Source of the DNA: an uncultured Bacilli bacterium | GTDB taxonomy: Bacteria > Bacillota_I > Bacilli_A > RFN20 > DUOF01 | Direction of reading: 5' to 3' | Assembly: GCA_934183255.1 (NCBI GenBank) | Contig: CAKPSD010000001.1 | Coordinates: 581,728-645,727, forward strand | DNA: 64,000 nt | Shown: positions 1 through 59,252 of the stretch, piece after piece | How positions within the stretch are numbered: position 1 is the first letter of the stretch | Layout of the letters: each line of letters starts with the position of its first letter | Made by a program: the position numbers and the translations under genes | The notes under the pieces: generated by a model | The model's database searches: none | What the model was told of the DNA's origin: nothing | The model's input: the letters and a program-made list of their open reading frames with translations, nothing else

Positions 1-779
1 AAATCTTTATAATCAAAAGTTAATACAATACCTATTCCCTTTGTAGAATACTTATCAGAAACATTCTTTAACTCTAAGTTCCCAGAATATGCATATTCTC
101 CTTTTACTATTCTTTTATTAATCGCAAATGGAAGCATATTATCATAAAGATCAGATAATTCTATATAAGTTATACCTAAACTACTAACATAATCATATCC
201 AGTAGAAGCATCACTATACTTTGTATTTTCTTCAATAAGTCCTAAAAGTTTTCCACTATTTTCATTAGTTCCACCCCAAGTTTCATGACTAGTAAAATTT
301 TCAACGTTTATTCCATATATCATTCTATATTTTTTTGCTATTTTCAAATATTGCTTTACACTTGTTTCATCACTATTTACTATAGTAATTGAATTTTCAT
401 CATAAATTAGATTTCTAGTTAAAGTATTATTTATAAATTTTCCATATGGATCAATTACATTATTATATTCATTACCATTTTTTAATTTTACATAATAAGA
501 ATACTCTTTTCCTAATAAGTTTCCAGAAATATATCCCATCCAAATATTTGAATTATCATTTTTTTTAATTAATGTTACTTCTCCATCACTTAAATCATCT
601 ACGATAACTTTTACTTCTTCTGCTTCTGTAGAATAAAACTTAAATATTGTTTGTGACGATGTATAAATATATCCTAATTCATCAGATACAAAAGAATCTT
701 CTGCTTTTACTACATTTGAATTAGCAAAAAAAGCTACTATTAATAAAACAAAAATATAAATATAATTTTTTAATTTCAT
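1..779 (-). CDS. Secreted pullulanase-like glycoside hydrolase (GH13), N-terminal part; gene continues beyond window start
   Basis: Minus-strand ORF missing from the track because it is truncated at the window edge. ATG at 779 then MKLKNYIYIFVLLIVAFFANSNVVKA signal peptide. CBM48-like block (YTSSQTIFKFYSTEAEEVKVIV). Block IYGINVENFTSHE...GKLLGLIEE...GYDYVSSLGITYIELSDLYD resembles the pullulanase type I region IYE.HVRDFS...GK.LG..E.GT..GLDHLKELGVTH..LLP. Confidence 0.5.
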   Translation of the reverse strand, partial: MKLKNYIYIFVLLIVAFFANSNVVKAEDSFVSDELGYIYTSSQTIFKFYSTEAEEVKVIVDDLSDGEVTLIKKNDNSNIWMGYISGNLLGKEYSYYVKLKNGNEYNNVIDPYGKFINNTLTRNLIYDENSITIVNSDETSVKQYLKIAKKYRMIYGINVENFTSHETWGGTNENSGKLLGLIEENTKYSDASTGYDYVSSLGITYIELSDLYDNMLPFAINKRIVKGEYAYSGNLELKNVSDKYSTKGIGIVLTFDYKD

Positions 780-890
780 TATAAAATCAACTCCTATTAA
801 AATTTTATCAAAATGAGGCTTTATAAACAATAAAATATTGTTTATTTACCTTAAATATATTAAAATTTTATTATGAAAGAAGTGTGTTAA

Positions 891-1835
891 ATGGATAAGC
901 AAAAATTTAAAAGTAATATAAAAACATTAGCTAAATCAACTTATAGCAACAAAGCATTATTTGAAAGAAGAAAGAACTCATTTATTGTTCCAATTATTAT
1001 CTTTCTATTAGTAATTTTTATGCTATGTGTCCCTTCATATATTTTAGCTAGAAAGGTGAAAAGTTCTAATATTATAAAAAACTTTCCAGAAATATATGCT
1101 CCTATGGAATCATTATTAACAAGAAATTTAGATTGTCATGTTAGCAATAAACTTTTAGTTTGTGATGAAAATGCAGAAAAAGTAAATATATTAGTAGGTG
1201 ATTCAATAAAATATACAGTTATAGCAAATAATCCTACTATTTCTATAGATACTAATGTTGTATACGAAAATCCAAAAGATACTGACAATATAATATTATT
1301 ACTAAGCAAATATATAAAAATTAGATATAGCCAGCGTGATTATGTAAATGGAAAAGTTAACACTTATGAAATTATAGGTGATTATAGTGATTTTGAGGGA
1401 TATGATTTTAAAGATATATCTCAAAAGATTGCAAACAATCCAAGTATATTAAACTCTGAAATAGAAAGTTTTGTTCATACAACATATCTTTCTACATTAG
1501 ATACAAAACTATTAGTAAATATATCTAGCCTACTAGTTTCATTCATTATGTTAATTCTAGTTACTTCACTTATCTTAAAAGGTCCATATTTATTTAGACG
1601 TAAAAAGGGATTTAAATTCAGTGAATGTTTAAAAATTTCTTTAACATCTTCCCTACCTGCTCTATTACTAGGAATTATAGTTTACTTTTTAACTGGTATG
1701 GATTTTGCTAATGCTTTTGGAATAATATTTATGGTAAGAATTGTGTTTATATACTTTAAGTATATATTCTCAACAAAAAATAATATATATAAATCTTTAT
1801 ATGCAGAAACAAAAGAAGAGAGGTTTAATGTCTAA
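891..1835 (+). CDS. Hypothetical polytopic membrane protein (one N-terminal TM, central extracytoplasmic region, three C-terminal TMs)
   Basis: Hydrophobic segments at aa 33-55 and in the C-terminal ~100 aa. Stop overlaps the maf start (TAATG), which suggests an operon. Confidence 0.5.
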   Translation: MDKQKFKSNIKTLAKSTYSNKALFERRKNSFIVPIIIFLLVIFMLCVPSYILARKVKSSNIIKNFPEIYAPMESLLTRNLDCHVSNKLLVCDENAEKVNILVGDSIKYTVIANNPTISIDTNVVYENPKDTDNIILLLSKYIKIRYSQRDYVNGKVNTYEIIGDYSDFEGYDFKDISQKIANNPSILNSEIESFVHTTYLSTLDTKLLVNISSLLVSFIMLILVTSLILKGPYLFRRKKGFKFSECLKISLTSSLPALLLGIIVYFLTGMDFANAFGIIFMVRIVFIYFKYIFSTKNNIYKSLYAETKEERFNV

Positions 1836-2386
1836 TGTATATATTAGCTAGTGCTTCTCCGCGAAGAAAAGAACTATTAAAAAAGATAATAGATGATTTC
1901 AAAATAATTACAAGTAATGTAGACGAAACTTACCCTGATACAATGGATAAAATGTCAGTAGCAGAATTTTTAGCTACCAAAAAAGCTTTATCTGTATTTG
2001 AAAACAATAAAAATGATATTGTTATAGGTTCCGACACTGTTATTGTTTACAACAATAAAATTTATGGTAAACCTATAAATAAAGATGATGCAAAAAATAT
2101 GTTAAAAGAATTTTCTAATAACACGCATTATGTTGTTACTGGAGTTTGTGTTGCATCACAAAAAAGAACATTATCGTTTTCTTCAATTAGCAAAGTTACA
2201 TTTTATGAACTAAGCGATAACGAAATTGATGAATATTTAAGTGATGACGAATACAAAGACAAAGCTGGTTCCTATGCAATACAGGGAAAAGCTTCCTTAT
2301 TTATAAAAAATATAGATGGTGACTATAATAGCATAATTGGTTTACCTATTTCTGAGTTAAATAGAATATTAAAGAACTTCTTTTAA
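1835..2386 (+). CDS. maf: Maf-like nucleoside triphosphate pyrophosphatase
   Basis: N-terminal LASASPRRKELL, then GSDTVIV and YGKP motifs; C-terminal AGSYAIQG. 183 aa. Confidence 0.85.
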   Translation: MYILASASPRRKELLKKIIDDFKIITSNVDETYPDTMDKMSVAEFLATKKALSVFENNKNDIVIGSDTVIVYNNKIYGKPINKDDAKNMLKEFSNNTHYVVTGVCVASQKRTLSFSSISKVTFYELSDNEIDEYLSDDEYKDKAGSYAIQGKASLFIKNIDGDYNSIIGLPISELNRILKNFF

Positions 2387-2423
2387 TAAATTGAATATAT
2401 TGTAATATAGGAGGCAAATAACT

Positions 2424-2654
2424 ATGCGTAGACCACAATATTACAATACTTATTATCAAAGTTCTTATCCTATAAACACTACTGAAGAAAGATTTATAGG
2501 GCCTGTTATACCATTTATAGGTGGAGCCTTAATTGGCTATATTGCAGGAAGGCCACAATATACTTATAATAATCCACCTTACTATCCAGTATATTATTAT
2601 CCTACATATCCTTATTATCCACAAACACCTACTAATTATACAAATATGAACTAA
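2424..2654 (+). CDS. Small Tyr/Pro-rich protein with a central hydrophobic segment
   Basis: Strong RBS AGGAGG 8 nt upstream. 76 aa; YYNTYYQSSYP ... GPVIPFIGGALIGYIAG ... PPYYPVYYYPTYPYYPQTP. Followed by an intrinsic terminator. Confidence 0.5.
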   Translation: MRRPQYYNTYYQSSYPINTTEERFIGPVIPFIGGALIGYIAGRPQYTYNNPPYYPVYYYPTYPYYPQTPTNYTNMN

Positions 2655-2659
2655 AAACA

Positions 2660-2688
2660 ATCCGCCAGTCATTCTGGTGGTTTTTTTA
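2660..2688 (+). terminator. Rho-independent terminator ending the maf operon
   Basis: Hairpin CCGCCAG-loop-CTGGTGG followed by T7. Confidence 0.6.
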
Positions 2689-3327
2689 TATTAAATATAC
2701 ATTAAAATAATGTATTCTAATTTCAAAATTTTAATAAATTTAATACTTTTTATTAACTGTAGTTAAATACTCTTTTAATACTATTTGTTCTTACGTTTAT
2801 ATCAAATATGAATATTCTAAATATCAAACAACGATCTATAACACAAATATCATTAAATAAATTCTTTGGTATGGAGAAAATTTATTTAAATACTATTTAG
2901 CATAATAAATGACAATATATTATTATAAATAATATAAAAGTATAAATTAGCTATTAAAACATCATTTTATATACAAGACTTTCTTGGTATGATAAAAAAA
3001 CTTATATTTATAATATTGAACTTTATAGCGTTTATAAACAATTATTACATTAGCTGGGGACTAATATTTTAATTTATTTATAATGGTTAAAATAGATTAA
3101 AAATACAAGTAAGATCATCTTTATCCTTTGAGGAAGAATAGCAAAATTTTTCTCACATATAAGTTTATAACAAACTCTTGGGGTTACTACTCAAATATTC
3201 TAAGAATAGTAAGAATTGTTAACAAGTAACTTATAAAATTGTATTATGAAAATATCTATTTTTATAAAAAAAGCTATTGATTTTTCGCCAACAGCCCTAA
3301 AAATACATTTACATATAATATTTTAAT

Positions 3328-4383: not shown

Positions 4384-5334
4384 CTAGTTACTATCTTTGA
4401 AGCTTAATCCTAAGTTAGCAACTTTATCTTTTACTTCTTTAATTGATTTTTTACCCATATTACGAACTTTGCATAAATCATCTTCAGTTCTTAAAATTAA
4501 TTCTTGAACAGTTTGAATATTAGCTCTCTTTAAGCAATTATATGATCTTACAGAAAGATCTAATTCTTCAATTGTCATATCATTAAATTTATTAACAACT
4601 GGAGCAACTGTTTCTTGAAGAACATTTTCATATTTATCAAGATTGCTTAAATCACATAATAAACTGAAATAATCATTTAAGATTTTAGAAGCTACTGCAA
4701 TAGCTTCATTTGGAGTCATACCTCCATTTGTCCATACATCTAGGTATAGTTTTTCATAATTTGTACTTTGACCAATACGAGTTGGTTCAGTTTCATAAGA
4801 AACCTTTCTAACTGGAGAATAATTAGAATCAGTTGGAATAATTCCAAAATGTGTTCTACTACCCTTATTATTTTCAGCAGTAACATAACCTCTACCATTC
4901 TTTGCATAGATAGTCATATTAAGTGTTCCACCTGCACTAACTGTTGCTATGTATAAGTCCTTATTAATAACTTCTACATCACCTGGGCAAACAATATCAG
5001 CAGCTGTAACTACTTTAGGTCCTTTTACAGAAATTTTTAATTCTTTCTTAACATTATCATCGTCATCAATCTTCAAAATTAAATCTTTTAGGTTTAAAAC
5101 GATCGTTGTAACATCTTCTCTAACTCCATCAAGAGCACTAAATTCATGTCTAGCGCCTTCTACTTCGATAGCATAAACACTAGCACCAGGAATAGAAGAT
5201 AATAAAACTCTTCTTAAAGCATTACCTAAAGTTGTACCAAATCCTTTTTCAAGTGGTTCGATAGCAACTCTTAAGTAATTAGCTTCATTAACTTCATTTG
5301 ATGGAATAATCTTTGGTTTTTCAAACTTTCTCAT
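4384..5334 (-). CDS. rpoA: DNA-directed RNA polymerase subunit alpha
   Basis: YLRVAIEPLEKGFGTTLGNALRRVLLSSIPGA N-terminal domain. 316 aa. Position after rpsK. Confidence 0.95.
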   Translation of the reverse strand: MRKFEKPKIIPSNEVNEANYLRVAIEPLEKGFGTTLGNALRRVLLSSIPGASVYAIEVEGARHEFSALDGVREDVTTIVLNLKDLILKIDDDDNVKKELKISVKGPKVVTAADIVCPGDVEVINKDLYIATVSAGGTLNMTIYAKNGRGYVTAENNKGSRTHFGIIPTDSNYSPVRKVSYETEPTRIGQSTNYEKLYLDVWTNGGMTPNEAIAVASKILNDYFSLLCDLSNLDKYENVLQETVAPVVNKFNDMTIEELDLSVRSYNCLKRANIQTVQELILRTEDDLCKVRNMGKKSIKEVKDKVANLGLSFKDSN

Positions 5335-5374
5335 TATTATTTTTCTCCTTTACTGAATATTATTGGTCAACTTA

Positions 5375-5791
5375 TTATCCACGTGGACGTTTAGGTGGAC
5401 GACAACCATTGTGTGGAACTGGTGTTGCATCAATGATTGCTTGAATTTCTAATCCTGCAGTTTGAAGAGCTCTAACTGCTGCTTCTCTACCAGGACCAGG
5501 TCCTACGATATTAACATCAACTGTTTTTACTCCATAATCTTTTGCACTTGTAGCTGCTGCTTCAGCTGCCATTTGTGCTGCATAAGGAGTAGATTTTTTA
5601 GCACCCTTGAATCCTAATGCACCTGCACTAGACCAAGTTAATACGCTACCATTTTCATCAGTTATAGAAACGATAGTGTTGTTAAATGTTGAATGAATAT
5701 GTGCGATTCCTTTAACAACATTTTTACGAGCACGTTTTTTACGAACCGCAGTATTTGTAGCAGTTTTTCCTTTAGTTGTTGCTTTTGCCAT
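5375..5791 (-). CDS. rpsK: 30S ribosomal protein S11
   Basis: [18 protein letters not shown]...[17 protein letters not shown]. Confidence 0.9.
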
Positions 5792-5803
5792 GTTCTAACC
5801 TCC

Positions 5804-6178
5804 TTATTGTGCTGCTTTCTTCTTATTAGCAATAGTTTTACGTGGTCCCTTACGAGTACGAGCGTTAGTTTTAGTGCTTTGTCCTCTTACAGGTAAACCT
5901 TTACGATGTCTTAATCCACGATAACTACCTATTTCACTTAAACGTTTAATGTTTAAAGCTACTTCTCTACGTAAATCTCCTTCTACTCTATATTTAGAAA
6001 CTTCATTACGTATTTTAGTTAACTCTTCTTCAGTTAAGTCTTTTACTCTTTTATCTTCTGAGATATTTGTAGCTTTCAAGATATCTTGAGCTAATGGTTT
6101 CCCAATACCATATACATAAGTTAATGATATAACAACTCTCTTATCGTTTGGTATATCTACTCCAGCAATACGTGCCAT
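5804..6178 (-). CDS. rpsM: 30S ribosomal protein S13
   Basis: [26 protein letters not shown]. Confidence 0.95.
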
Positions 6179-6197
6179 TTAATTTTCCTCCTTAAAA

Positions 6198-6311
6198 TTA
6201 ACCTTGTCTTTGTTTATGTTTAGGGTTTTCGCAAATGATCATTATACGACCTTTTCTACGAATTACTCTACATTTATCACAAATTGGTTTTACTGAAGGT
6301 CTTACTTTCAT
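6198..6311 (-). CDS. rpmJ: 50S ribosomal protein L36 (zinc-ribbon type)
   Basis: Not in the ORF track (37 aa). Translates to [49 protein letters not shown] upstream. Confidence 0.85.
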
Positions 6312-6377
6312 ATTTCCTTCCTCCTTATACTTTTTTTACTTATTAATTTTACACCATTTTCCTAAATATTCCAAGCA

Positions 6378-6614
6378 TTAATTTGGTTTATAGTTTGTAG
6401 GAAAACGATACTTTATACGCCCACGTGTTAAATCATATGGGGAAATTTCAACTGTGACTCTATCACCTAGTAAAATGCGGATAGAATTGTTTCGGATTTT
6501 ACCAGAAACATGGGCAAGAATCACCATCCCATTATCTAACTTTACCTTGAATTGAGCATTTGGTAAAGTTTCAACTACTTGAGCCTCAACTTCAATTACA
6601 TCTTCTTTTGCCAC
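6378..6614 (-). CDS. infA: Translation initiation factor IF-1 (GTG start)
   Basis: [40 protein letters not shown]...[23 protein letters not shown]1-like fold. Confidence 0.9.
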
Positions 6615-6629
6615 TTAATTAACCTCCTA

Positions 6630-7379
6630 TTAGACCTTAGTTAAGATTTCATAACCTTCATCTGTTACCACAACGGTATGTTCATAATGTGCAGTTATTT
6701 TTCCATCTAGCGTTTTAACTGTCCAATCATCAAGAAGTGTTCTTGTATGATAGTCACCTAAAGTTACCATAGGTTCAACTGCTATTACCATTCCTTTAAC
6801 AATCTTAGGACCTCTTCCAGCTATTCCATAGTTTGGAATAATAGGATCCTCATGTAAATTACTGCCAACACCATGTCCAGTGTAATCTCTAGGAACACCA
6901 TAACCATGGGCTTCAACAAAAGTTTGAACGGCATGAGATATATCACTTATTCTATTTCCAGGTTTAACTTGTTCTAATCCTTTAAATAGTGATTCTTCAG
7001 TTACTTTCATTAGCTCCTTAGCCTCTTCACTTACTTCACCAACAGCATAAGTCCAAGCACTATCTCCATGATATCCTTTAAAGTTTGCGCCAATATCAAT
7101 TGAGATAATATCACCATTTTTAAGAATATGTTTTGCATTAGGAATTCCATGTACTAATACATCGTTAATTGATGTGCATATGCTTCCTGGAAATCCTCCA
7201 TATCCTTTAAATGATGGGGTTGCACCTTGGCTTAGAATAAATTTTTCTGCCAATTCATCAAGTTTTTTAGTAGAGATTCCTTCTTTTATAAATGGCTTTA
7301 AATACTGATGAGTTAATCCAACAATCCTGCCAGCTTGTCTTAATAACTCAATTTCTTTTTCATTTTTTATAGTAATCAC
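6630..7379 (-). CDS. map: Methionine aminopeptidase type I
   Basis: 249 aa. Metal ligands in D..D...H...E..E context ([23 protein letters not shown]). Position after adk. Confidence 0.9.
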
Positions 7380-8026
7380 TACTTAACACCTCCAAGTATT
7401 CTATTAATGTCTTGTGATACTTTTTCTATATCTTGAAGGGCATTGACATTTGCAAGTAGATTTCTTTTGTCATAGAAATCAATAAGTGGAACAACTTGAG
7501 TATGGTATACTTCGAGTCTTCTTTTGATACCTTCTTTTGTATCATCATCTCTTTGATATAAGGCTTGCCCGCACTTGTCACAAATGCCTTCTTTTACAGT
7601 TTTTTTGTAAATTTTGTGATATGTTTCACCACATTTACAAACTAGACGGCCACTAATTCTATCAACTATAGCTTCATCGTCTATTTCAAGATTGATAACT
7701 TTATCAATCTTCCTGTCATATTTTTTTAATAATTCATCAAGTAAATTTGCTTGATGAAGAGTTCTAGGATATCCGTCAAACAAGATACCCATATCACTAG
7801 CACAAGTTTTTACTTTTTCTTCTAGAACCTGCAAAACTATTTCATCATCAACAAGTCTTCCTTGTTTTTGCAAGGAAGCAATTTTAACTCCTATTTCATC
7901 ATTTTTATTTCTTCTTTCTCTAAGTAGTTCTCCTGTTGATATAGGAAGCAAATTGTACTTCTTTGCTGCCATTTGAGATTGGGTACCCTTACCACTAGAG
8001 ATAGGACCTAAAAATATAATATTCAT
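7379..8026 (-). CDS. adk: Adenylate kinase (zinc-lid type)
   Basis: [11 protein letters not shown]-loop. Lid CKCGETYH...CDKCG. Confidence 0.9.
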
Positions 8027-8039
8027 TATAAATTGCCTC

Positions 8040-9347
8040 CTACATGAATCCCTTGTATTCTTTACCAGCTAATTTTGCTTTAATTTGCTCATAAGTTTCA
8101 CTAGCAACCCCGACCAAGATGATAATACTAGTTCCACCAAAGGCTATTGCACTATTTAAATCAAAATAGATTGGTAACAATACTGGTAATACTGCAATTG
8201 CTGTTAGAGTAATTCCACCAACAAAAGCAACTCTATTAATAACTCTAAATAAGTATTTTTCTGTTTCTTTTCCTTGTCTAATTCCTGGTATGAATGAATT
8301 ATTCTTAGCTAAGTCTTCACTAAGTTTTTTAGAATCCATTTGCATGTTTGTCCAGAAGAATGTAAACATGATAATTAAAACGATGTAAATAATTAATCCC
8401 CAATATACTCCTCCTACTTTAGTAGAATAGTTAAATATTGCTGCTACCTTTGCTGCACCCGTACTATTAGGAAACATAGAAGCAATTGTAACTACTGCCA
8501 TCATTAATGAAGAGGCAAATATTACAGGCATAACACCTGAAGGGTTTAATTTTACTGGTAAATGATGTACATCTCCAGCTTTTATTTGTGTTGTATTTTG
8601 TGAATGCTGTAAAGGTATTTTACGAACACTATTTTCAATAAACACAACGAATATAATTACTAATAAATACGATAATACATAGATCAATAACTTTATAAAT
8701 CCTTTGAACATTTCTACACTAGTTCCTGTTAAATTAACAAAACTATAATATGCACTTAAGAATTGATTTGGAATACTAGCGATAATACCTGCAAATATTA
8801 TCATAGAAACTCCATTACCAATACCGCGTGATGTAATTCTATCAGCTAGCCACATCGTAAACATTGATCCGGCTATAAGAATTGTTGTTATGTAAATATA
8901 ATTCCAAGTTGTAAACTCTCCACCACCAATAGGCTTTAAGCCATAATTATTTTTCATTACTAGAATTGTTCCATAACCTTGTACTGCTGCAAGTAACAAA
9001 GTTAAATATCTGGTTGCGTTATCAATTTTCTTTCTTCCTTTTTCACCTTGTTTAGTTAAGTCTTCAAGTTTTGGAAGAATTCCCATTGATAACAATTGAA
9101 TAATAATTGAAGCTGTAATATATGGAGATATACCTAATGCAAATAATGAGAATGATTGTAAGTTTCCTCCACCTAATACATTCATTAGAGTGAATATGTC
9201 ACTACCGCTGAATGTAATAGAGCTAGAATCAACTCCTGGAACTATAAGTGTACATCCAAATCTGAATATAAGCATAATTCCAAGTGTGAATATAATACGC
9301 TCTCTTAGTTCTTTATTTTTAAAGATAGAGACTAATTTTCGTATCAT
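8040..9347 (-). CDS. secY: Preprotein translocase subunit SecY
   Basis: 435 aa, 10 TM. GISPYITASIIIQLL motif. Confidence 0.95.
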   Translation of the reverse strand: MIRKLVSIFKNKELRERIIFTLGIMLIFRFGCTLIVPGVDSSSITFSGSDIFTLMNVLGGGNLQSFSLFALGISPYITASIIIQLLSMGILPKLEDLTKQGEKGRKKIDNATRYLTLLLAAVQGYGTILVMKNNYGLKPIGGGEFTTWNYIYITTILIAGSMFTMWLADRITSRGIGNGVSMIIFAGIIASIPNQFLSAYYSFVNLTGTSVEMFKGFIKLLIYVLSYLLVIIFVVFIENSVRKIPLQHSQNTTQIKAGDVHHLPVKLNPSGVMPVIFASSLMMAVVTIASMFPNSTGAAKVAAIFNYSTKVGGVYWGLIIYIVLIIMFTFFWTNMQMDSKKLSEDLAKNNSFIPGIRQGKETEKYLFRVINRVAFVGGITLTAIAVLPVLLPIYFDLNSAIAFGGTSIIILVGVASETYEQIKAKLAGKEYKGFM

Positions 9348-51672: not shown

Positions 51673-52029
51673 TTATACATTTTTAATATCTTTTACAAAT
51701 ACATTAATTGACTTGAATTTTATATCTAGTGTTTTTTCTAACACGTATTTTACTTTCTTTTGAACTTCGCTTACTACTTCAGTAATTTTTAATCCGTAAG
51801 CTACTACAATATACATTTCTACTTCTACGCCACTCTTTGTCTCTCTAGCAAAAACTCCTTTGTTATAATTCTCAATACGTAGTAGTTCAGCTATTCCAGC
51901 TCTAAGTCCTGTTTTAGGCGCCATACCTACTACACCATAGCATTCTGTTGCAGCGTTACCTGCAATTGAAGCGATTGCATCCATAGTTATAGAAACACTT
52001 CCTTTATCACTATTTTTTTCAATTGTCAT
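51673..52029 (-). CDS. yloU: Asp23/Gls24 family envelope stress protein (YloU-like)
   Basis: 118 aa. Asp23 fold pattern. Conserved yloU-yloV pairing. Confidence 0.85.
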   Translation of the reverse strand: MTIEKNSDKGSVSITMDAIASIAGNAATECYGVVGMAPKTGLRAGIAELLRIENYNKGVFARETKSGVEVEMYIVVAYGLKITEVVSEVQKKVKYVLEKTLDIKFKSINVFVKDIKNV

Positions 52030-52177
52030 AATAAGCCTCCTACTAAATGCGATAATATTATATAAAATTGTTTTAATTTTGTAAACCTTTAACCATTAAT
52101 TTTACTATTCTTGGTAAATTATACTTATATATATTTGCTTCTTATTATAAAAAATTTATGGCGTAAGCAAAAAAATA

Positions 52178-52207
52178 TTTTACATCTATTTAATCCTAAG
52201 TTATAAT
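52178..52207 (+). promoter_or_regulatory. Sigma-A-type promoter (TTTACA-17-TATAAT) for the three-gene operon
   Basis: TTTACA at 52178-52183, 17-bp spacer, TATAAT at 52202-52207. RBS AGGAG at 52217-52221. ATG at 52230. Confidence 0.6.
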
Positions 52208-52229
52208 AATTTTAGTAGGAGTTGTAGTC

Positions 52230-54188
52230 ATGAATAGTAATTATTATTTAACATTGCTTTACAAAAAATCTTTAGAACTAAAGAAAATTCTTTCTACCAT
52301 TGATGAAAATGGATATTCTAGTGAGTATAAGAAATATTTGATATCAAGTTATATAATAACTTTAGATTCCATTTTAGAAATTGGAATTGGCGATTTACAC
52401 TCTCCTAAATTAGATGAATTAACTTCATTAATTTACTATACTAGGCAAAAAGCAGTTCACTACGGTTACTTTAATGGCATGCACAATGTTGAAAATATAG
52501 CCGCTAAAATCATTGAATTAACTGAGGAAAACTATAAAAATGAACTTGAATATTATAAAAAGCTATTTAATAGTGATAATTTTTATTGTGCTTCTAATCT
52601 CGTTATAAAGAATTCTTCTCAAATTCAATTAGATACATATTTTTATAAATTAAAGAGTAAAGATAATAACCAAGTATTATGTGTTCCATTAAGAAAAATG
52701 TTTTCTTTAACAAGTACTAGCAAAGATAAAGTTATTGAATATATAGTAGATACATCTGATCCTTTATCTTTATATTCATACGAAGAAGGCGGAAGGGTTG
52801 GAAATCACACTCTTTTATATATGGAGCAAGCTAAAGAATTTATAAAAGAAAATTTTGAAATTGTTAATGAAGATTATAATGAGCACAATAATGAAATGAT
52901 TAAAATTATTTCTAGTTTTATATCAGATCCAGTTAATTCAAATCAAATAATGGAATATGCTTCTCATGATACTTTTTGTAGGAATACAATTGATGTAATA
53001 AAAGATTTTATTGAAGAAAGAACTATGTTAAAAGCTTATTTAGATAGCAATCATTTAATTAAAGATAAATACACTGTTAGCAAAAGTCAAAAAACTGATT
53101 ATGTAAAACTTCAAAATAAATTTAAAAAATCAGCAATGCCATTTATTACACAAAGAGATGCCTTCTTTATAGATATGACCATTAAAAGAGCTACTTTTTA
53201 TAGAAATACTCTAATTGGAGATATAACTTCAGGATTAACTATAGACGATACTGTTTTGTGTCCTATTTTAATTCAATTATATGAAACAGGGCCTAAATAT
53301 TTTTCTAATCAATTTAAAAACTCTAACCCTGAATTTAGAAAGTGTTGTGAAAATTTACTCAAATATCGTATTATTTTCTCTCACTATCTACTAAATACTA
53401 AAGAATATAAAGAAAACTTACAAAACTTTAAAGAAGAATTTACTAAACTAATTCAAATGATTTCTATGATTAATACTGATGATATTAGAATACCTATATC
53501 AGAGAACTATGATACTTATAGATTAATAGAAAGAGACAAGTCAGAATTTTTCAACTATAAGCATGAGCAATTTTTACATATCAAAGGAAATACTTATATT
53601 GGTAAGAAAATATATTATTCTTCAAGAAATTCAGAAAGCAAAAATTTAATTGCTATTATTCCTAGTAATGATTCTTGTGTCTCTTACTATGAAAAAGATG
53701 CTAATGGATATTTAAATATAAAATACACAATAGATGAAAAAACTGGAAAGAAAAAGCAAATTCATAATCTTTCAAGCTCATTAAGAGGTTCAAAAGAAGT
53801 TTCAATAGACTTTAATTTATCAAATTTATTTAAGGCTTATAGTATGTTAAAAAGAATTAAATCTAATGGTGATATTTACATTGGATTTAATAGTTGCGAA
53901 GAAAATAATAAAATGGCGCATTATGATGATTTAGATAATGTTATCTTACGTTTCTATAATCAAGGATACTTGCCTGTAGAGTTATTACAACCTACTAAAT
54001 TAAGCACTACTAACTATGAAAATACAGGAATAGTGCACTTACTAGATAATAAAGATAATGTTATTGCTACTATTGTTAATAAGAAAAAATGTAAATTCAA
54101 TTTTGAATCTAAAAAAGATGAAAAGAGATTCTTCTCTAGAATAGATGATATTACTCATGATTTTTCAAGAAGGAGGCACAACAGATGA
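52230..54188 (+). CDS. Large hypothetical protein (652 aa) with N-terminal all-helical HEPN-like domain carrying an R-x4-H motif; no other recognisable domain
   Basis: N-terminal ~115 aa predicted four helices. YYTRQKAVHYGYF (R72, H77; nt 52443-52460). No Walker A, no TM, no signal peptide. Stop overlaps the next start (ATGA). Confidence 0.55.
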   Translation: MNSNYYLTLLYKKSLELKKILSTIDENGYSSEYKKYLISSYIITLDSILEIGIGDLHSPKLDELTSLIYYTRQKAVHYGYFNGMHNVENIAAKIIELTEENYKNELEYYKKLFNSDNFYCASNLVIKNSSQIQLDTYFYKLKSKDNNQVLCVPLRKMFSLTSTSKDKVIEYIVDTSDPLSLYSYEEGGRVGNHTLLYMEQAKEFIKENFEIVNEDYNEHNNEMIKIISSFISDPVNSNQIMEYASHDTFCRNTIDVIKDFIEERTMLKAYLDSNHLIKDKYTVSKSQKTDYVKLQNKFKKSAMPFITQRDAFFIDMTIKRATFYRNTLIGDITSGLTIDDTVLCPILIQLYETGPKYFSNQFKNSNPEFRKCCENLLKYRIIFSHYLLNTKEYKENLQNFKEEFTKLIQMISMINTDDIRIPISENYDTYRLIERDKSEFFNYKHEQFLHIKGNTYIGKKIYYSSRNSESKNLIAIIPSNDSCVSYYEKDANGYLNIKYTIDEKTGKKKQIHNLSSSLRGSKEVSIDFNLSNLFKAYSMLKRIKSNGDIYIGFNSCEENNKMAHYDDLDNVILRFYNQGYLPVELLQPTKLSTTNYENTGIVHLLDNKDNVIATIVNKKKCKFNFESKKDEKRFFSRIDDITHDFSRRRHNR

Positions 54189-54436
54189 TTACTAATGAAG
54201 GTTTAAAATCTATTTTTAATTCTTATAAAATAAATAATGTTGTTTTAGTGGAAAACGCTAACGAATTAAATTTTGTTATTTCTAATATGAATTCAAATAT
54301 TTCTCTAACAGAATGGGAAAATCTAGAAAACATTTTAAAAGATATTTATAAAAAAAATATTAATATAATGACTAAAAATCAATGTGTTAAATATTTAGGG
54401 AATGACTTTTTAAGTAAAGGAGTAGTGATTCTATGA
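54185..54436 (+). CDS. Small hypothetical protein (83 aa), second gene of operon
   Basis: Start overlaps the upstream stop; stop overlaps the downstream start (ATGA). No recognisable motif. Confidence 0.5.
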   Translation: MITNEGLKSIFNSYKINNVVLVENANELNFVISNMNSNISLTEWENLENILKDIYKKNINIMTKNQCVKYLGNDFLSKGVVIL

Positions 54437-54774
54437 AAAACGGGTACACTTTACTTAACACTTTAACTACTATTTTAAACAATAGTGAAAGTATAACTAA
54501 CTCTATAATTAATTGCGATAAAGAAACTTTTTCGACTAATGATACTCTTGTAAATTTAGGAATAGGATTATTATCTGAAGTTAATGACATTCTTACTAAT
54601 TTAGATGATGAAGTGTATATACTAAGTAGCAAACTATACAATCTAACATATCCTATTAAAGAATACGCTAGAACTATGTTCAATTCTTACAAATTTGTTA
54701 ATACTTATAAACTTTATGATTGTATAACTTTTGATATTTGTAATCTAAAGAATTATCTAAATTCATTACAATAA
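54433..54774 (+). CDS. Small hypothetical protein (113 aa), third gene of operon
   Basis: Translationally coupled to the previous ORF. No recognisable motif. Confidence 0.5.
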   Translation: MKNGYTLLNTLTTILNNSESITNSIINCDKETFSTNDTLVNLGIGLLSEVNDILTNLDDEVYILSSKLYNLTYPIKEYARTMFNSYKFVNTYKLYDCITFDICNLKNYLNSLQ

Positions 54775-54836
54775 ATAAAAAAAATTAAAAATACTCTTGA
54801 AATTATTGCTCATATTATATACAATAGTAGAGCAAA

Positions 54837-54910
54837 TGCAGATGTAGTTCAGTGGTAGAACACAACCTTGCCAAGGTTGCTATGGGGGTTCGATTCCCCT
54901 CATCTGCTCC
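54837..54910 (+). tRNA. tRNA-Gly (anticodon GCC)
   Basis: Cloverleaf: acceptor GCAGATG/CATCTGC, D-arm GTTCAGTGGTAGAAC, anticodon stem CAACC/GGTTG with loop TTGCCAA, T-arm GGGGTTCGATTCCCCTC, 3' CCA encoded. Own promoter (TTGAAA...TACAAT) and terminator. Confidence 0.9.
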
Positions 54911-54921
54911 ATAAATTGAAT

Positions 54922-54948
54922 TTTACCTAGAGAAATCTAGGTTTTTTT
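54922..54948 (+). terminator. Rho-independent terminator after tRNA-Gly
   Basis: CCTAG-AGAAAT-CTAGG followed by T7. Confidence 0.65.
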
Positions 54949-55115
54949 ATTATTTTTCTATTGAGGATATTTTTATTCAAAAGTAATCATTTTTATATGT
55001 GATGTTTTATTGTTGATATCTTTATGTTTTTCAAATATATCAATAAAAAAGTTAAAAAATTATGATATACTTTTTATATATAAAAAGCAAATCAATTAGA
55101 AAGAGAGGTAATATT

Positions 55116-56123
55116 ATGAAAAAGGTATATATAATAACTGGAGCTAATGGATTTTTAGGAAATAATATTGTAAGGAAATTACAGTTAAATAAAGAAAATG
55201 AAATAAGAGCGTTAGTATTACCAAATGATTCTATAAAATCATTAGATGGCTTAAATTGTAAAATTTATTATGGTGATGTAACAAAAAAAGAAAGCTTAGT
55301 TTCAATTTTCGAAGACCTTTATAATAAAGAAACATATGTAATTCATTGTGCTGGAGTTGTGTATATAAAATCTAAATATAGTCCTATTGTGTATGATGTA
55401 AATATTAATGGCACAAAAAATATTGTTGAACAAGTTTTAAAAAATAAAGCAAAACTTGTTTATGTTAGTAGTGTACATGCCATTATGGAAAAGCCAAATA
55501 ACGAATTAATTCTTGAAACTAACAATTTTGATCCTATGAAAGTAAAAGGGTTGTATTCAAAGACAAAAGCAGAAGCCACTAAGTATGTTCTTGATACAAT
55601 AAAAAGCAAAAATTTAAACGCTTGTATTGTCCACCCTTCTGGAATTATTGGCCCTTATGATTTTGGAAACAGTCATTTAACACAACTAATTAAAGAAGTT
55701 GCTAAAAAAAAGAATTTTGCAAGTGTAAAAGGGGGATATGATTTTGTAGATGTTAGAGATGTAGCAGATGCCATTATTAATGCTTGTGACAAAAAAAATC
55801 AAGGGGAATGTTATATCTTATCAAATAAATATTATACAATCAAAGAAATAACAGATTTGGTTTGTGATTTGCAGGGTAAAAAAAGAATCAAAATAATTTT
55901 ACCTATTTGGGTTGCAAAACTTGTAGCTCCTTTTTTTGAATTTCATTACAACTTAAAAAAGCAAACACCATTATTTACGAAATATTCTTTAAGTGTTTTA
56001 AAATCTAATGCTAATTTTAGTAGTAAAAAAGCTAAAGAAGAATTAAATTTTAAAAATACAGATATGAAAGATACAATTAAAGACACTCTAAATTGGTTAA
56101 AAAAAATGAATTTTATAGAATAA
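55116..56123 (+). CDS. NAD-dependent epimerase/dehydratase family protein (SDR, 3-beta-HSD/dihydroflavonol reductase-like)
   Basis: Start at ATG 55116 (MKKVYIITGANGFLGNNIVRKL, GxxGxxG) after RBS AGAGAGG. YSKTK catalytic Y-x3-K. Confidence 0.8.
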   Translation: MKKVYIITGANGFLGNNIVRKLQLNKENEIRALVLPNDSIKSLDGLNCKIYYGDVTKKESLVSIFEDLYNKETYVIHCAGVVYIKSKYSPIVYDVNINGTKNIVEQVLKNKAKLVYVSSVHAIMEKPNNELILETNNFDPMKVKGLYSKTKAEATKYVLDTIKSKNLNACIVHPSGIIGPYDFGNSHLTQLIKEVAKKKNFASVKGGYDFVDVRDVADAIINACDKKNQGECYILSNKYYTIKEITDLVCDLQGKKRIKIILPIWVAKLVAPFFEFHYNLKKQTPLFTKYSLSVLKSNANFSSKKAKEELNFKNTDMKDTIKDTLNWLKKMNFIE

Positions 56124-56149
56124 TTTAATAAAATACATTCTCTCAGTAA

Positions 56150-56180
56150 GTAAAAAAAGAACTGCTTGTTAGCAGTTCTA
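56150..56180. terminator. Bidirectional terminator between the epimerase gene (+) and the SUKH gene (-)
   Basis: AGAACTGC-TTGTT-AGCAGTTCT perfect hairpin. A7 upstream on the plus strand, which is the T-run on the minus strand. Confidence 0.6.
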
Positions 56181-56187
56181 AATAATT

Positions 56188-56715
56188 TTATTCTTCTTCC
56201 TCATCTACATCAAATGTTCCTGTATAATAATCAATTTCATACATTAGTAATTCAGGTAAGTAATCAAATTGCATTTCTTCTTCTTTTGTTTCTTTATTCC
56301 ATAAAGAATAATAATAACAATCATCTTCATCTAAGCCAATAAGAACTAGAACTCCATCTGTGCTTTCACCGATTAAAAGCATGTTATCTGGTACATTATA
56401 TTCTTTTCTAGTATCTGCAACTAAGTTTTGATAATAAATTCCATCAACATATTTTTTATCAGATGTTAAGCTAAATAATTTAATATCAAAATACTTTCCT
56501 CCATTAGATAATAAATATACTTGGAAAAAATCAGCAGGGAATTCTAAACCTATTTTTGTTTCAACTTCTGTTAACGCATCCATAACAGAATCATCTGCTC
56601 CTCTATATAAAGTTATATCATCTTCATATCCCAAAAGTGGTCTATACAAATTAATATATTCAGATCCTGATTTTTCACATGCATCAATAATCTCTTGTAA
56701 TTCTATCTTTTCCAT
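56188..56715 (-). CDS. SMI1/KNR4 (SUKH-1) family protein, putative polymorphic-toxin immunity protein (orphan)
   Basis: 175 aa. LEFPADFFQVYLLSNGG motif typical of SMI1/KNR4. Acidic C-terminus (DVDEEEE). No adjacent toxin gene. Confidence 0.65.
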   Translation of the reverse strand: MEKIELQEIIDACEKSGSEYINLYRPLLGYEDDITLYRGADDSVMDALTEVETKIGLEFPADFFQVYLLSNGGKYFDIKLFSLTSDKKYVDGIYYQNLVADTRKEYNVPDNMLLIGESTDGVLVLIGLDEDDCYYYSLWNKETKEEEMQFDYLPELLMYEIDYYTGTFDVDEEEE

Positions 56716-56831
56716 AAAATAATACCTCCTGTGTATATTTTGATTATAATTGATTTTTGTATTTTTTACATCATTTACAACATTTTTTTAGTATTTATGT
56801 TAAAATTAACAAGTAATAAAGAGGTGAAACA

Positions 56832-57770
56832 ATGTCTTTTTCAACTGATATAAAAAACGAGATAGTTAGATGTGAATATTCCCCAAGTGAAAAGATTGCA
56901 CTTCTTTCTGCTTTAATAAAAATAAATGGTACTTTAAGCATGGGAAATAAATCAATAGTTGTTGATGTTAGAACAGAAAATGCTAAGACTGCCAAACTTA
57001 TATTTTTAATTATAAAAGAAAAATATAATATTGAATGTAGACTTTTAGTTTCTAAAAAAAATAAGCTTAATAAAAACAATGTATATATAGCTCAAATTAG
57101 AAATAATAGTTTAGAAATATTAGAAGACTTAGAAATATATAAAGATGGTAGTTTAGAAGCTTTACCTACCATGAAAATATTGAAGAAAGAAAATGATAAA
57201 AGAGCTTATTTAGCCGGATGTTTTTTAGCAAGTGGAAGCATTAATGATCCTAGTTCTAAAAACTATCATTTGGAGGTTTCTACTAGTTACTTAAGACATG
57301 CTGAATATTTACAAAAAATGATATCTAAGTTTAATCTTAATCCTAAAACAATTAAAAGAAGAAACAAATATATTGTTTATTTAAAAAAGTCTGAAGAAAT
57401 AAGTGATTTTTTAAGAATTATTAACTCTCAACTTGGTGTACTTGAATTTGAAGAGGAAAGAATAAATAAAGACTATTGGAATTCTAATAACAGATTAAAT
57501 ATTTGTGAAATATCTAACGAAGTTAAAACTTTAAATTCTGCTAAAGAACAAGTTGAAGCAATAAACAAAATATATAATTATAAAAAAGAATATTTACTTG
57601 ATCAAAAAGATAAACAAATTGCAGAAATTAGATTATCTAATCCCGAAGCTAATCTTCAGGAAATAGCAGATATTTATACCGCTAAATATGATAAGCCTTT
57701 AAGCAAATCTGGTGTTAATCATCGTATTAGAAAAATAAAGCAAATAGCAAGTGAAATAAAAGGAGAATAA
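56832..57770 (+). CDS. whiA: DNA-binding protein WhiA
   Basis: MSFSTDIKNEIVRCEYSPSEKIALLSALIKINGTL N-terminus. LAGCFLASGSINDP LAGLIDADG-like. C-terminal HTH. Confidence 0.9.
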   Translation: MSFSTDIKNEIVRCEYSPSEKIALLSALIKINGTLSMGNKSIVVDVRTENAKTAKLIFLIIKEKYNIECRLLVSKKNKLNKNNVYIAQIRNNSLEILEDLEIYKDGSLEALPTMKILKKENDKRAYLAGCFLASGSINDPSSKNYHLEVSTSYLRHAEYLQKMISKFNLNPKTIKRRNKYIVYLKKSEEISDFLRIINSQLGVLEFEEERINKDYWNSNNRLNICEISNEVKTLNSAKEQVEAINKIYNYKKEYLLDQKDKQIAEIRLSNPEANLQEIADIYTAKYDKPLSKSGVNHRIRKIKQIASEIKGE

Positions 57771-57773
57771 TTT

Positions 57774-59252
57774 ATGGAAAGAAAGAGTGGAGTATTTTTA
57801 AGTATTTCTTCTTTGCCAAGTAAAGATGGTATTGGAACACTTGGTAAAAGTGCTTATAAATTTATAGATTTTTTAAAGGAAAGTGGCTTTTCATATTGGC
57901 AAATCTTACCATACAATCCAACTGGTTTTGGTAATTCACCTTATCAATCATTTTCTACTTTTGCAGGCAATCCTTATTATATAGATTTAAATCTCTTAAT
58001 AAATGAAAAAATATTATCCATGAAAGCTTTTAAAGAGTATAAATACGAAAATAGTGAAAATATTAATTATGGATTGTTATTTGAAGAAAAATTTAAAGTA
58101 CTAAGAAAAGCATACAATAAAAGTTATAAGAGATTAAAGAATGAAATAGAAGAGTTTTGTAAAGAAAATGCTTATTGGATAGAAGATTATAGTTTATTTA
58201 TGGCTATCAAAGACCTTTTGAATGGATGTAATTTTTTATATTGGCCTAGTAAGCTAAAGAAAAGAGATACTGAAGAGATAAAAAAATATAAAGAGTTATT
58301 AAGTGAAGATATTAACTTTTATAAATTTATTCAATATTTATTTTATAAACAATTTAAAAATTTAATAGGATACGCTAATGGACAAGGTATTGAATTAATT
58401 TGTGATTTACCTATTTATGTCTCTATGGATAGTAGTGATGTATGGGCTAACATAGATTTATTTATGTTTAATAGTGATTATGTCCCTAAATTAGTAGCGG
58501 GTGTTCCTCCTGATTATTTTAGTAAAACAGGTCAATTGTGGGGTAGCCCTTTATACAATTATAAAAAAATGAAAGAAGATAATTATTCTTGGTGGGTTAA
58601 TAGAGTTAAATATATAGGTAAATATTGTAAAAATATTAGAATTGATCATTTTAGAGGATTTGAAGCATTTTACGCAATAAAATATGGTGAAGAAACAGCG
58701 ATAAAAGGAAGATGGATTAAAGGTCCTGGCAAGGAACTATTTGATGAAATAGAAAAAGAATCTCCTGATATCCATATTATTGCTGAAGATTTAGGAGTAA
58801 TAACAAGATCTGTTAGAAAACTTATTAGAGAATGTAATTATCCTGGAATGAAAATACTTCAATTTGCTTTTGATGGTTCTAAAAATAATAGTTATTTACC
58901 TAAGAATCACACTCCTAATAGTGTTGTTTATATAGGGACTCATGATAATCAAACTTTGAAAGGTTTTGTTAATGATTTGGATGATGAAAAAAAAGAATAT
59001 ATAAGAAGTTGTTTTAGATATAAAGAGAAAACTATAGAAGAATTACTTATAAAAGCATTATTTAAATCAAAATCTAATTTAGCTATTATAAATGCTTGTG
59101 ATATGTTACTTAAAGATGATAATTATAGAATGAATGAGCCATCAACTTCAAATGATAAAAACTGGAGTTTTAGACTATTATCTTTAAAAGATTTACTTAA
59201 ATTAAAGAACAAATATAGAAGATTAAATAAGAAATATGAAAGGTCTAATTAA
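57774..59252 (+). CDS. malQ: 4-alpha-glucanotransferase (amylomaltase, GH77)
   Basis: RKSGVFLSISSLPSKDGIGTLGKSAYKFIDFL...WQILPYNPTG..NSPYQS. 492 aa. Confidence 0.92.
   Translation: MERKSGVFLSISSLPSKDGIGTLGKSAYKFIDFLKESGFSYWQILPYNPTGFGNSPYQSFSTFAGNPYYIDLNLLINEKILSMKAFKEYKYENSENINYGLLFEEKFKVLRKAYNKSYKRLKNEIEEFCKENAYWIEDYSLFMAIKDLLNGCNFLYWPSKLKKRDTEEIKKYKELLSEDINFYKFIQYLFYKQFKNLIGYANGQGIELICDLPIYVSMDSSDVWANIDLFMFNSDYVPKLVAGVPPDYFSKTGQLWGSPLYNYKKMKEDNYSWWVNRVKYIGKYCKNIRIDHFRGFEAFYAIKYGEETAIKGRWIKGPGKELFDEIEKESPDIHIIAEDLGVITRSVRKLIRECNYPGMKILQFAFDGSKNNSYLPKNHTPNSVVYIGTHDNQTLKGFVNDLDDEKKEYIRSCFRYKEKTIEELLIKALFKSKSNLAIINACDMLLKDDNYRMNEPSTSNDKNWSFRLLSLKDLLKLKNKYRRLNKKYERSN

Follow-up and report, generated by a model that had tools for sequence, protein, structure and literature searches.

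A clade-specific operon of uncultured gut Bacilli encodes a predicted dual-HEPN protein and two partners of probable MNT and HepT descent

HEPN nucleases are controlled by partners of different kinds: by protein binding in PrrC, by RNA in AbiF and by AMPylation in HepT. In the type VII toxin-antitoxin system HepT-MntA, the AMPylation carried out by MntA needs the motif GSx10DxD (PMC13000451). HEPN enzymes need no metal ions to cut RNA, and their composite site is built from two juxtaposed HEPN domains. The superfamily is recognised by the motif R-x4-6-H, placed where helix 3 ends or the loop to helix 4 begins, by a polar residue that follows the Arg and by an acidic residue within helix 2 (PMC3710099). 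We have analysed a 64,000-nucleotide stretch of the genome of an uncultured Bacilli bacterium (GCA_934183255.1, contig CAKPSD010000001.1, positions 581,728 to 645,727), hereafter the window, and describe here a cassette of three genes, A, B and C, situated between the Asp23 gene (yloU) and a tRNA-Gly gene. We consider it a clade-specific, vertically inherited ribonuclease (RNase) module that derives from a HEPN-MNT (HepT-MntA) toxin-antitoxin system, in which A would be a Cas13-like intramolecular dual-HEPN nuclease and the catalytically dead pair B-C its regulator or adaptor; the probability that we attach to this reading is about 0.62.

Protein A deserves attention first. Its AlphaFold2 model (pLDDT, the predicted local distance difference test, 85; pTM, the predicted template modelling score, 0.82) consists of two helical bundles, each followed by a beta-rich domain, and the two R-x4-H motifs occupy the same place in the two bundles, at the C-terminal end of the third helix and ahead of the loop to the last one. 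In the model the bundles span residues 1-112 and 291-412, and the beta-rich domains about 123-290 and 421-652. R72, H77, R380 and H385 are invariant in an alignment of 28 homologues, and in a second alignment of 17 sequences that reaches down to 16% identity these four residues make up half of the eight invariant columns. Helix 2 of the first bundle has a conserved acidic residue, E50, and E352, in the helix before that of the second motif, is invariant among the 28 sequences. Distant relatives have R-N-x3-H, the classic HEPN form, at the motifs, and in most relatives the second motif reads R-N-x3-H or R-Q-x3-H. The features expected of HEPN domains are present in A, namely the four-helix bundle, the position of the motif, Gln or Asn after the Arg in the family, and the acidic residues E50 and E352. 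A preliminary description of this DNA had placed a HEPN-like domain in the first ~115 residues of A with R72-x4-H77 as its motif, and the confident model, which shows a four-helix bundle there whose third helix ends with the motif, bears this out, as does the invariance of both residues among homologues. That description spoke of one HEPN centre; the first one stands, and a second, formed by the other bundle with its invariant R380 and H385, had been overlooked.

Aligned with each other by hhalign, the two bundles of A matched with an E-value of 6e-5 and a probability of 65%, with the motifs in register and with none of 120 shuffles reaching the score, which points to their origin by internal duplication. 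A corresponding duplication of the beta-rich domains was unsupported (domain 2 versus domain 4, E 0.39), as was any kinship of B or C with these domains in hhalign comparisons. A word-indexed search retrieved 47 homologues of A, all of ~650 aa, 44–98% identical, devoid of Pfam domains and of informative names, and the hosts of A homologues are metagenome-assembled genomes (MAGs) of uncultured gut organisms labelled ‘Bacilli bacterium’. An exhaustive search with a hidden Markov model in 1.84 billion cluster representatives places the whole family at 41 clusters (50% identity), including full-length relatives at 16–27% identity.

The structure of B, predicted from an alignment of seven sequences, has the alpha/beta fold of MNT proteins, and its best structural matches were the MNT proteins of the Shewanella pair SO_3166/SO_3165 (PDB 5yep) and of the Aphanizomenon HEPN/MNT system (PDB 7ae2). 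For profile comparisons we built references from eight annotated MNT/HepT gene pairs located on plasmids. The B family matched the MNT reference with an E-value of 8e-5 over 71 columns; the score of 29.4 compares with 11–14 for shuffled alignments and was reached by 0 of 120 shuffles. The active site is a different matter: where the references have the GS of GSx10DxD and the loop behind it, B has a gap of 8 residues, and no acidic pair is conserved across 15 family members. Judged from its sequence, B is an MNT-fold protein that cannot act as a nucleotidyltransferase, and AMPylation by B is not expected because the GSx10DxD site has been lost.

Protein C is likely a degenerate HepT. Compared by hhalign with the eight reference HepT proteins, its family gave an E-value of 0.01 across 101 colinear columns, i.e., over the full length, and a score of 19.7 against 11 ± 2 for shuffled alignments, about 4 standard deviations above them and unattained in 120 shuffles. 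Two mutually diverged members of the family produced full-length matches to the Pfam HepT-like family (PF01934) with E-values of 0.02 and 0.03 (14.5–15.1 bits against a cutoff of 23.5), and the other members produced none. In the register of HepT, the position of the catalytic Arg is variable, that of the His is taken by an invariant Asn84, and Tyr86 is invariant, so that the motif R-phi-x3-H-x-Y is incomplete in C. The Tyr of HepT, which corresponds to this invariant Y86, is the residue AMPylated by MntA. In all eight reference loci the MNT gene precedes the HepT gene and the two overlap; B and C follow one another in the identical order, with an overlap of 4 nt. The preliminary description had recognised nothing in the two small proteins and suggested a comparison with MNT antitoxins, and this comparison was rewarding: B has the MNT fold, C is probably HepT-derived, and the cassette is, as far as these sequences tell, of HEPN-MNT toxin-antitoxin ancestry.

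We recovered the surroundings of A from 11 related lineages (L001, L002, L003, L004, L005, L007, L009, L011, L013, L015 and L016). Genes A, B and C occur together in nine of the ten lineages with readable DNA downstream of A, down to 18% identity in A, and in eight of these nine they are next to Asp23. Nine of the 11 lineages have the Asp23 gene upstream of A in divergent orientation, even where A is 18–25% identical; for L003 no identity was obtained for the upstream gene, and L015 has kept A-B-C in a different neighbourhood. By contrast, A, B and C were all absent from 80 outgroup Asp23 loci, in which Asp23 is 48–65% identical and of which 39 extend more than 2.6 kb upstream. Because the outgroup loci are free of A, B and C, the cassette was, on this comparison of loci, acquired or invented within the clade and passed on vertically from then on. 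Two distant lineages have an extra gene between Asp23 and the cassette, which in L013 is an 854-aa open reading frame (ORF) without Pfam match (616-3180, minus strand) and in L016 encodes a GNAT acetyltransferase (4950-5414, minus strand).

The preliminary description had regarded the cassette as an accessory insert at a synteny break beside a tRNA, possibly of toxin-antitoxin or abortive-infection type. The HEPN assignment and the toxin-antitoxin ancestry are retained here, and its accessory status is not, since the cassette itself is part of a conserved synteny beside Asp23 down to 18–25% identity in A. An island at a tRNA hotspot was rejected: nothing resembling an att repeat of the tRNA 3' end was found, the GC content of the cassette (0.24) is normal beside the 0.25–0.29 of its neighbours, and the synteny is conserved. 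No integrase gene is present among the neighbouring genes examined, and phage or plasmid origin of A was likewise discarded, as tblastn of A against phage and plasmid collections returned no match in either. The cassette is thus a fixture of its clade, as a core gene would be, but an assigned housekeeping function is absent.

Outside these 11 lineages, L018 (region 5592-8196) represents the P0063-65 subgroup and is the one exception, among loci with readable DNA downstream of A, to the rule that B and C follow A. Its A, of the P0065 subgroup (24% identity), comes after a 126-aa ORF that has no significant match in Pfam and before a 70-aa ORF, behind which lies the sporulation gene yqfD (Pfam YqfD). 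The 70-aa ORF is presumably yqfC-like, and the host, having yqfD, is likely a spore-former. In this lineage A may act by itself or together with another partner.

The fixed position raises the prospect that the cassette is a domesticated housekeeping RNase, engaged in maturation or turnover of tRNA, rRNA or mRNA and needed for growth of these reduced-genome Bacilli, with B and C as fixed structural subunits in the manner of Grc3 for Las1. It would account well for the place beside Asp23-DAK2-recG in nearly all clade members examined, kept while RecG drops to 56% and A to 25% identity, for the lack of matches in phage and plasmid collections and in PADLOC, and for the loss of catalytic residues in B and C, which fits a frozen structural role. 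The window's own proteins, moreover, are carried on a contig of 1.03 Mb, which implies a small genome with little space for dispensable genes. On the other hand, the absence from the 80 outgroup loci speaks against a general cellular need, the family with its 41 clusters is tiny, and L015 holds the cassette in another context. The rate of change is also at odds with such a role. Compared with L002, proteins A, B and C are 58, 37 and 38% identical, as opposed to 75, 86 and 91% for recG, DAK2 and Asp23, i.e., they evolve 2–3 times faster than the neighbouring housekeeping genes, and synonymous divergence from L001 is in A, B and C 2–4 times that of the flanking genes asp23 and DAK2. On balance we regard the housekeeping proposal as possible but doubtful.

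Fast evolution, divergence above that of the flanks and a narrow distribution would suit an active toxin-antitoxin or abortive infection system, in which A as a toxic RNase is held by B-C, acting as a non-enzymatic protein antitoxin, and freed by phage or stress, the whole being kept by addiction or defence. The HEPN-MNT ancestry of B and C, the intact dual motifs of A, the translational coupling of the three genes and the precedents for control of HEPN nucleases by bound protein, by RNA or by AMPylation all agree with this. Against it stand a distribution that is strictly syntenic and not sporadic, the lack of mobility signatures and the normal GC content, the failure to match PADLOC or PHROGs, and the gene order, in which the toxin would come first and the putative antitoxin pair after it; furthermore, B is incapable of the only antitoxin chemistry established for MNT proteins. 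An active system of this kind is likewise possible but doubtful, and between a use in toxicity or defence and one in housekeeping RNA processing we see roughly even odds.

Along window positions 52000-59000, nucleotide identity to L001 amounts to 97–98% in the flanks, 90–94% in A-B-C, 77–89% in a SUKH gene downstream and 92–94% from whiA to malQ. This drop in identity suggests either recombination with a more distant lineage around a variable spot, or a different codon constraint.

A number of results weigh against the reading that we favour. No significant match to Pfam, NCBIfam, PADLOC or PHROGs was obtained for A, B or C, which for A includes every known HEPN family in these collections, and searches of PDB with the sequence of A and with profiles from the alignments of the families gave no match. 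Foldseek comparison of the A model with PDB yielded a best E-value of 0.07, which is not significant, and the bundles of A matched the eight reference HepT proteins in hhalign with E-values of 0.11 and 0.075, scores that were reached by 7 and 3 of 120 shuffles, respectively, and are not significant either. The HEPN ancestry of C draws on weak statistics together with gene order, L018 has A without B or C alongside, and strict synteny with vertical inheritance is atypical of toxin-antitoxin or defence modules. Scanned one by one, the alignment members of the three families gave sub-threshold hints only, the best of which for A was HEPN_Apea with an E-value of 0.19 in one distant member. The assignment of A to HEPN is thus a prediction drawn from the motif, its position in the modelled fold, the pattern of conservation and the genomic company, and not from family-level homology.

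With these results in mind, one may ask whether R-x4-H is kept in A for structure or for ligand binding, A being a non-catalytic helical-bundle scaffold and the operon one without nuclease function. Fold searches with A indeed returned mostly generic four-helix bundles, A matches no HEPN family at profile level, and non-catalytic HEPN domains do exist beside nucleotidyltransferases, many of them binding substrate and nothing else (PMC3710099). These non-catalytic domains are, however, those without R-x4-H (PMC3710099), and in A both motifs are the most conserved features and are accompanied by the polar residue after the Arg and by the acidic residue of helix 2. The loss of the motif in C, set beside its twofold retention in A, argues for selection on catalysis in A. 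We find a scaffold role highly improbable.

Returning to the RNase module of toxin-antitoxin descent, its proposed mode of action can be outlined. Protein A would pair its two bundles within one chain as a pseudo-dimer, in the fashion of Cas13; we infer this intramolecular pairing because HEPN RNases need two juxtaposed domains for their composite site. Such a nuclease would be expected to cleave RNA independently of metal and to leave 2',3'-cyclic phosphate ends, and the two beta-rich domains may serve for recognition of a substrate or of a signal. Translation coupled through ATGA would deliver B and C in a fixed ratio with A, and B-C, as a catalytically dead MNT-HepT complex, could bind A stoichiometrically as an inhibitor, a regulator or an adaptor. 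One conceivable route is that C serves as a dead HEPN protomer and pairs with a HEPN domain of A. Neutralisation based on AMPylation is predicted to be impossible in the cassette, and a canonical AMPylating type VII system is ruled out, since the catalytic residues of MntA are missing from B and those of HepT from C, a loss that the preliminary description had overlooked.

The components of the cassette and its immediate neighbours are listed in Table 1. The three ORFs of the ORF list are on the plus strand and joined by ATGA overlaps of 4 nt; upstream, on the minus strand, recG, DAK2 (yloV, DAK2/FakA-type) and Asp23 (yloU), named after their Pfam labels, end at 52029. The coupled ORFs, the promoter site and the motif R72-x4-H77 are all located where the preliminary description had them. 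A raw scan of this very AT-rich stretch found 31 promoter-like sites, against 33.5 expected by chance. Despite this chance-level scan, the promoter of A is real, because its -35 and -10 elements and their spacing, with the ribosome-binding site GGAG, are kept in seven related loci (L001, L002, L004, L005, L007, L009 and L011), whose A proteins are 46–95% identical to that of the window. In relatives this promoter comes after the terminator-like hairpin behind tRNA-Val, and for this reason we consider that the cassette has a promoter of its own. The leader of A measures ~20 nt and is therefore too short for a riboswitch or an antitoxin RNA. An AbiF-like RNA antitoxin was rejected on the grounds of this leader, of the absence of upstream tandem repeats, and of nothing being conserved upstream of A except the promoter. 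No terminator-like site was found between C and tRNA-Gly, and read-through from C into the tRNA gene is possible.

Table 1 Features of the A-B-C cassette and of its flanks (window positions, unless a related locus is named)
Feature	Position	Strand	Remarks
Promoter TTTACA-17-TATAAT, sigma-70-type	52179..52207	+	11/12 match; A-tract precedes
Ribosome-binding site AGGAG	52217..52221	+	8 nt before ATG of A
Gene A	52230..54188	+	652 aa; dual-HEPN-like; layout (helical bundle + beta-rich domain) x2
A bundle 1, HEPN-like four-helix	52230..52574	+	residues 1-115; helices 5-23, 31-53, 59-77, 87-112
Motif 1, R72-Q-K-A-V-H77	52443..52460	+	C-terminal end of helix 3 (59-77); invariant
A beta-rich domain 1	52584..53099	+	residues 119-290; fold matches nothing recognised
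A bundle 2, HEPN-like helical	53100..53465	+	residues 291-412; AlphaFold2 model
Motif 2, R380-I-I-F-S-H385 (in LLKYRIIFSHY)	53367..53384	+	end of helix 367-385; invariant
A beta-rich domain 2	53475..54185	+	residues 416-652; holds invariant D527, L585; fold matches nothing recognised
Gene B	54185..54436	+	83 aa; MNT fold without nucleotidyltransferase catalytic motif (pseudo-MNT)
Gene C	54433..54774	+	113 aa; probable degenerate HepT-like (pseudo-HEPN)
tRNA-Gly(GCC)	54838..54911	+	neighbour, no cassette component; own promoter-like site
Terminator-like hairpin	54925-54942		after tRNA-Gly
tRNA-Val(GAC) genes of related loci	L002 9832-9907; L004 9591-9666; L005 5796-5871; L009 5829-5904; L011 5808-5883		

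Relative to L001, the nearest relative and likewise a MAG of an uncultured Bacilli bacterium (A 95% identical), the ratio of nonsynonymous to synonymous divergence (dN/dS) amounts to 0.06, 0.24 and 0.09 in A, B and C, respectively, and because of these values we take all three for real genes under purifying selection. The strength of this selection, as well as the conserved, near-consensus promoter with its minimal leader, may be counted in favour of a housekeeping RNase. We consider an antisense ORF of 98 aa inside B/C (54387-54683, minus strand) probably spurious, since the DNA is rich in AT and the sense genes are under purifying selection. Gene A contains a 22-nt imperfect tandem duplication at 53408-53449.

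In most relatives the cassette has tRNA genes for neighbours. Five lineages (Table 1) carry tRNA-Val(GAC), followed by a terminator-like hairpin, ~100 nt upstream of A on the same strand; this gene is absent upstream of A in the window, L001 and L007. Of the nine related loci scanned, six have tRNA-Gly downstream of the cassette. The ancestral layout seems to have been tRNA-Val, A-B-C, variable genes and tRNA-Gly. This flanking by tRNA-Val upstream and tRNA-Gly downstream is a further point that a housekeeping RNase would accommodate.

Variable genes are located downstream of C, before or after tRNA-Gly. The window segment 54975-56154, just after tRNA-Gly, is swapped in L001, 94% identical, for a different segment of ~4 kb (4999-9066 of that locus), whose translations suggest membrane proteins, a pair of Cys-rich paralogues and a small protein resembling CsaA; the variable spot of the window holds a gene for an NAD-dependent epimerase/dehydratase (55062-56123; Pfam Epimerase, E 1e-29). 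Next to it, a SUKH/SMI1-KNR4 gene (56188-56715, minus strand; Pfam E 2e-8) is kept downstream of the cassette in most relatives. Genes of this family are often annotated as immunity proteins of polymorphic toxin systems. The one in the window evolves fast, being 71% identical to that of L001 where whiA next to it reaches 99%, and no cognate toxin gene was seen near it. Variable genes just downstream of C and an immunity-type gene nearby would be in keeping with an active toxin-antitoxin or abortive infection system.

In L004 (12535-13599, overlapping C) and L005 (8523-9578), but not in the window, C is directly followed by a fourth ORF of 351–354 aa. Its two products seem to be homologues of one another and have no match in Pfam; they may represent an optional fourth component of the cassette or cargo of the variable spot. 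The sign of the GC skew changes near window position 52000, from negative on the left to positive on the right, where gene orientation turns from minus to plus. Further changes of sign are seen near 22-26 kb, 32-44 kb and 44-46 kb, and the skew probably tracks the gene strand rather than a replication origin.

At present A, B and C are unannotated, having no Pfam, NCBIfam, PADLOC or PHROG family match and no protein name in the sources. If our reading is true, the A family would add a second case, much smaller and apparently independent, of a nuclease with two HEPN domains on one chain, and one with no CRISPR array near, Cas13 being the only other one among the systems compared. An MNT antitoxin and a HepT toxin that survive catalytically dead beside a new nuclease would also make a case for toxin-antitoxin parts recycled as regulatory subunits. 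Going further, one may speculate that the module has been domesticated entirely, and that the dual-HEPN RNase with its dead MNT and HepT subunits forms an essential, lineage-specific RNA-processing machine (acting, e.g., on tRNA or rRNA) in gut Bacilli with genomes of ~1 Mb. We think this unlikely; were it true, the intramolecular two-HEPN architecture would have an independent, non-CRISPR origin and would come with two new beta-rich recognition domains. Fixed as it is in a clade of uncultured gut Bacilli, the cassette may matter for their RNA metabolism or their phage resistance.

Known systems resemble the cassette in parts. Cas13 of type VI CRISPR systems likewise has two R-x4-H HEPN domains on one chain, where they form one composite RNase site. 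The order of domains differs, with the HEPN domains of A at residues 1-115 and 291-412 and a beta-rich domain after each, no sign of a guide RNA was seen, and the leader of A measures ~20 nt. A CRISPR identity was rejected, as the 64-kb window contains no CRISPR array, repeats or cas genes and Cas13 was not among the fold matches; the resemblance of A to Cas13 is architectural only.

The abortive infection and defence nucleases AbiF/AbiD (Abi_2), DARNA (PD-T7-3), ApeA and PrrC/RloC share with A an N-terminal HEPN RNase domain followed by a larger sensing or regulatory region, and the partners that control their activity include RNA for AbiF, single-stranded DNA together with SSB, a protein that binds such DNA, for DARNA, and a protein for PrrC. 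Unlike A, they have one HEPN domain and build the active site by homodimerising, and none is encoded with an MNT/HepT-like pair; they are sporadic defence genes, and A has no Pfam or PADLOC match to them. Core, vertically inherited HEPN RNases under control of a bound partner protein are known in Las1-Grc3 and in the KEN domains of Ire1 and RNase L. These are eukaryotic and of unrelated architecture, and homology to them is claimed at the level of the HEPN superfamily at most.

The likeness to the type VII system HepT-MntA (PDB 5yep, 7ae2) goes further. In both, a small MNT gene stands directly upstream of, and overlaps, a HepT-like gene of ~110 aa, and the locus includes a HEPN RNase motif of the form R-x4-H. 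The differences concern the place of catalysis: B is without GSx10DxD and C without the Arg and His of R-phi-x3-H-x-Y, so that C is not the nuclease, and the intact motifs of the cassette are found on an additional 652-aa protein with two HEPN domains and two beta-rich domains. HepT-MntA is, moreover, a sporadic and mobile pair, whereas the cassette is a syntenic chromosomal fixture. HepT-MntA is nevertheless the closest known system, and the cassette, which falls outside both the HepT-MntA and the Cas13 families, is best filed within the HEPN-MNT world.

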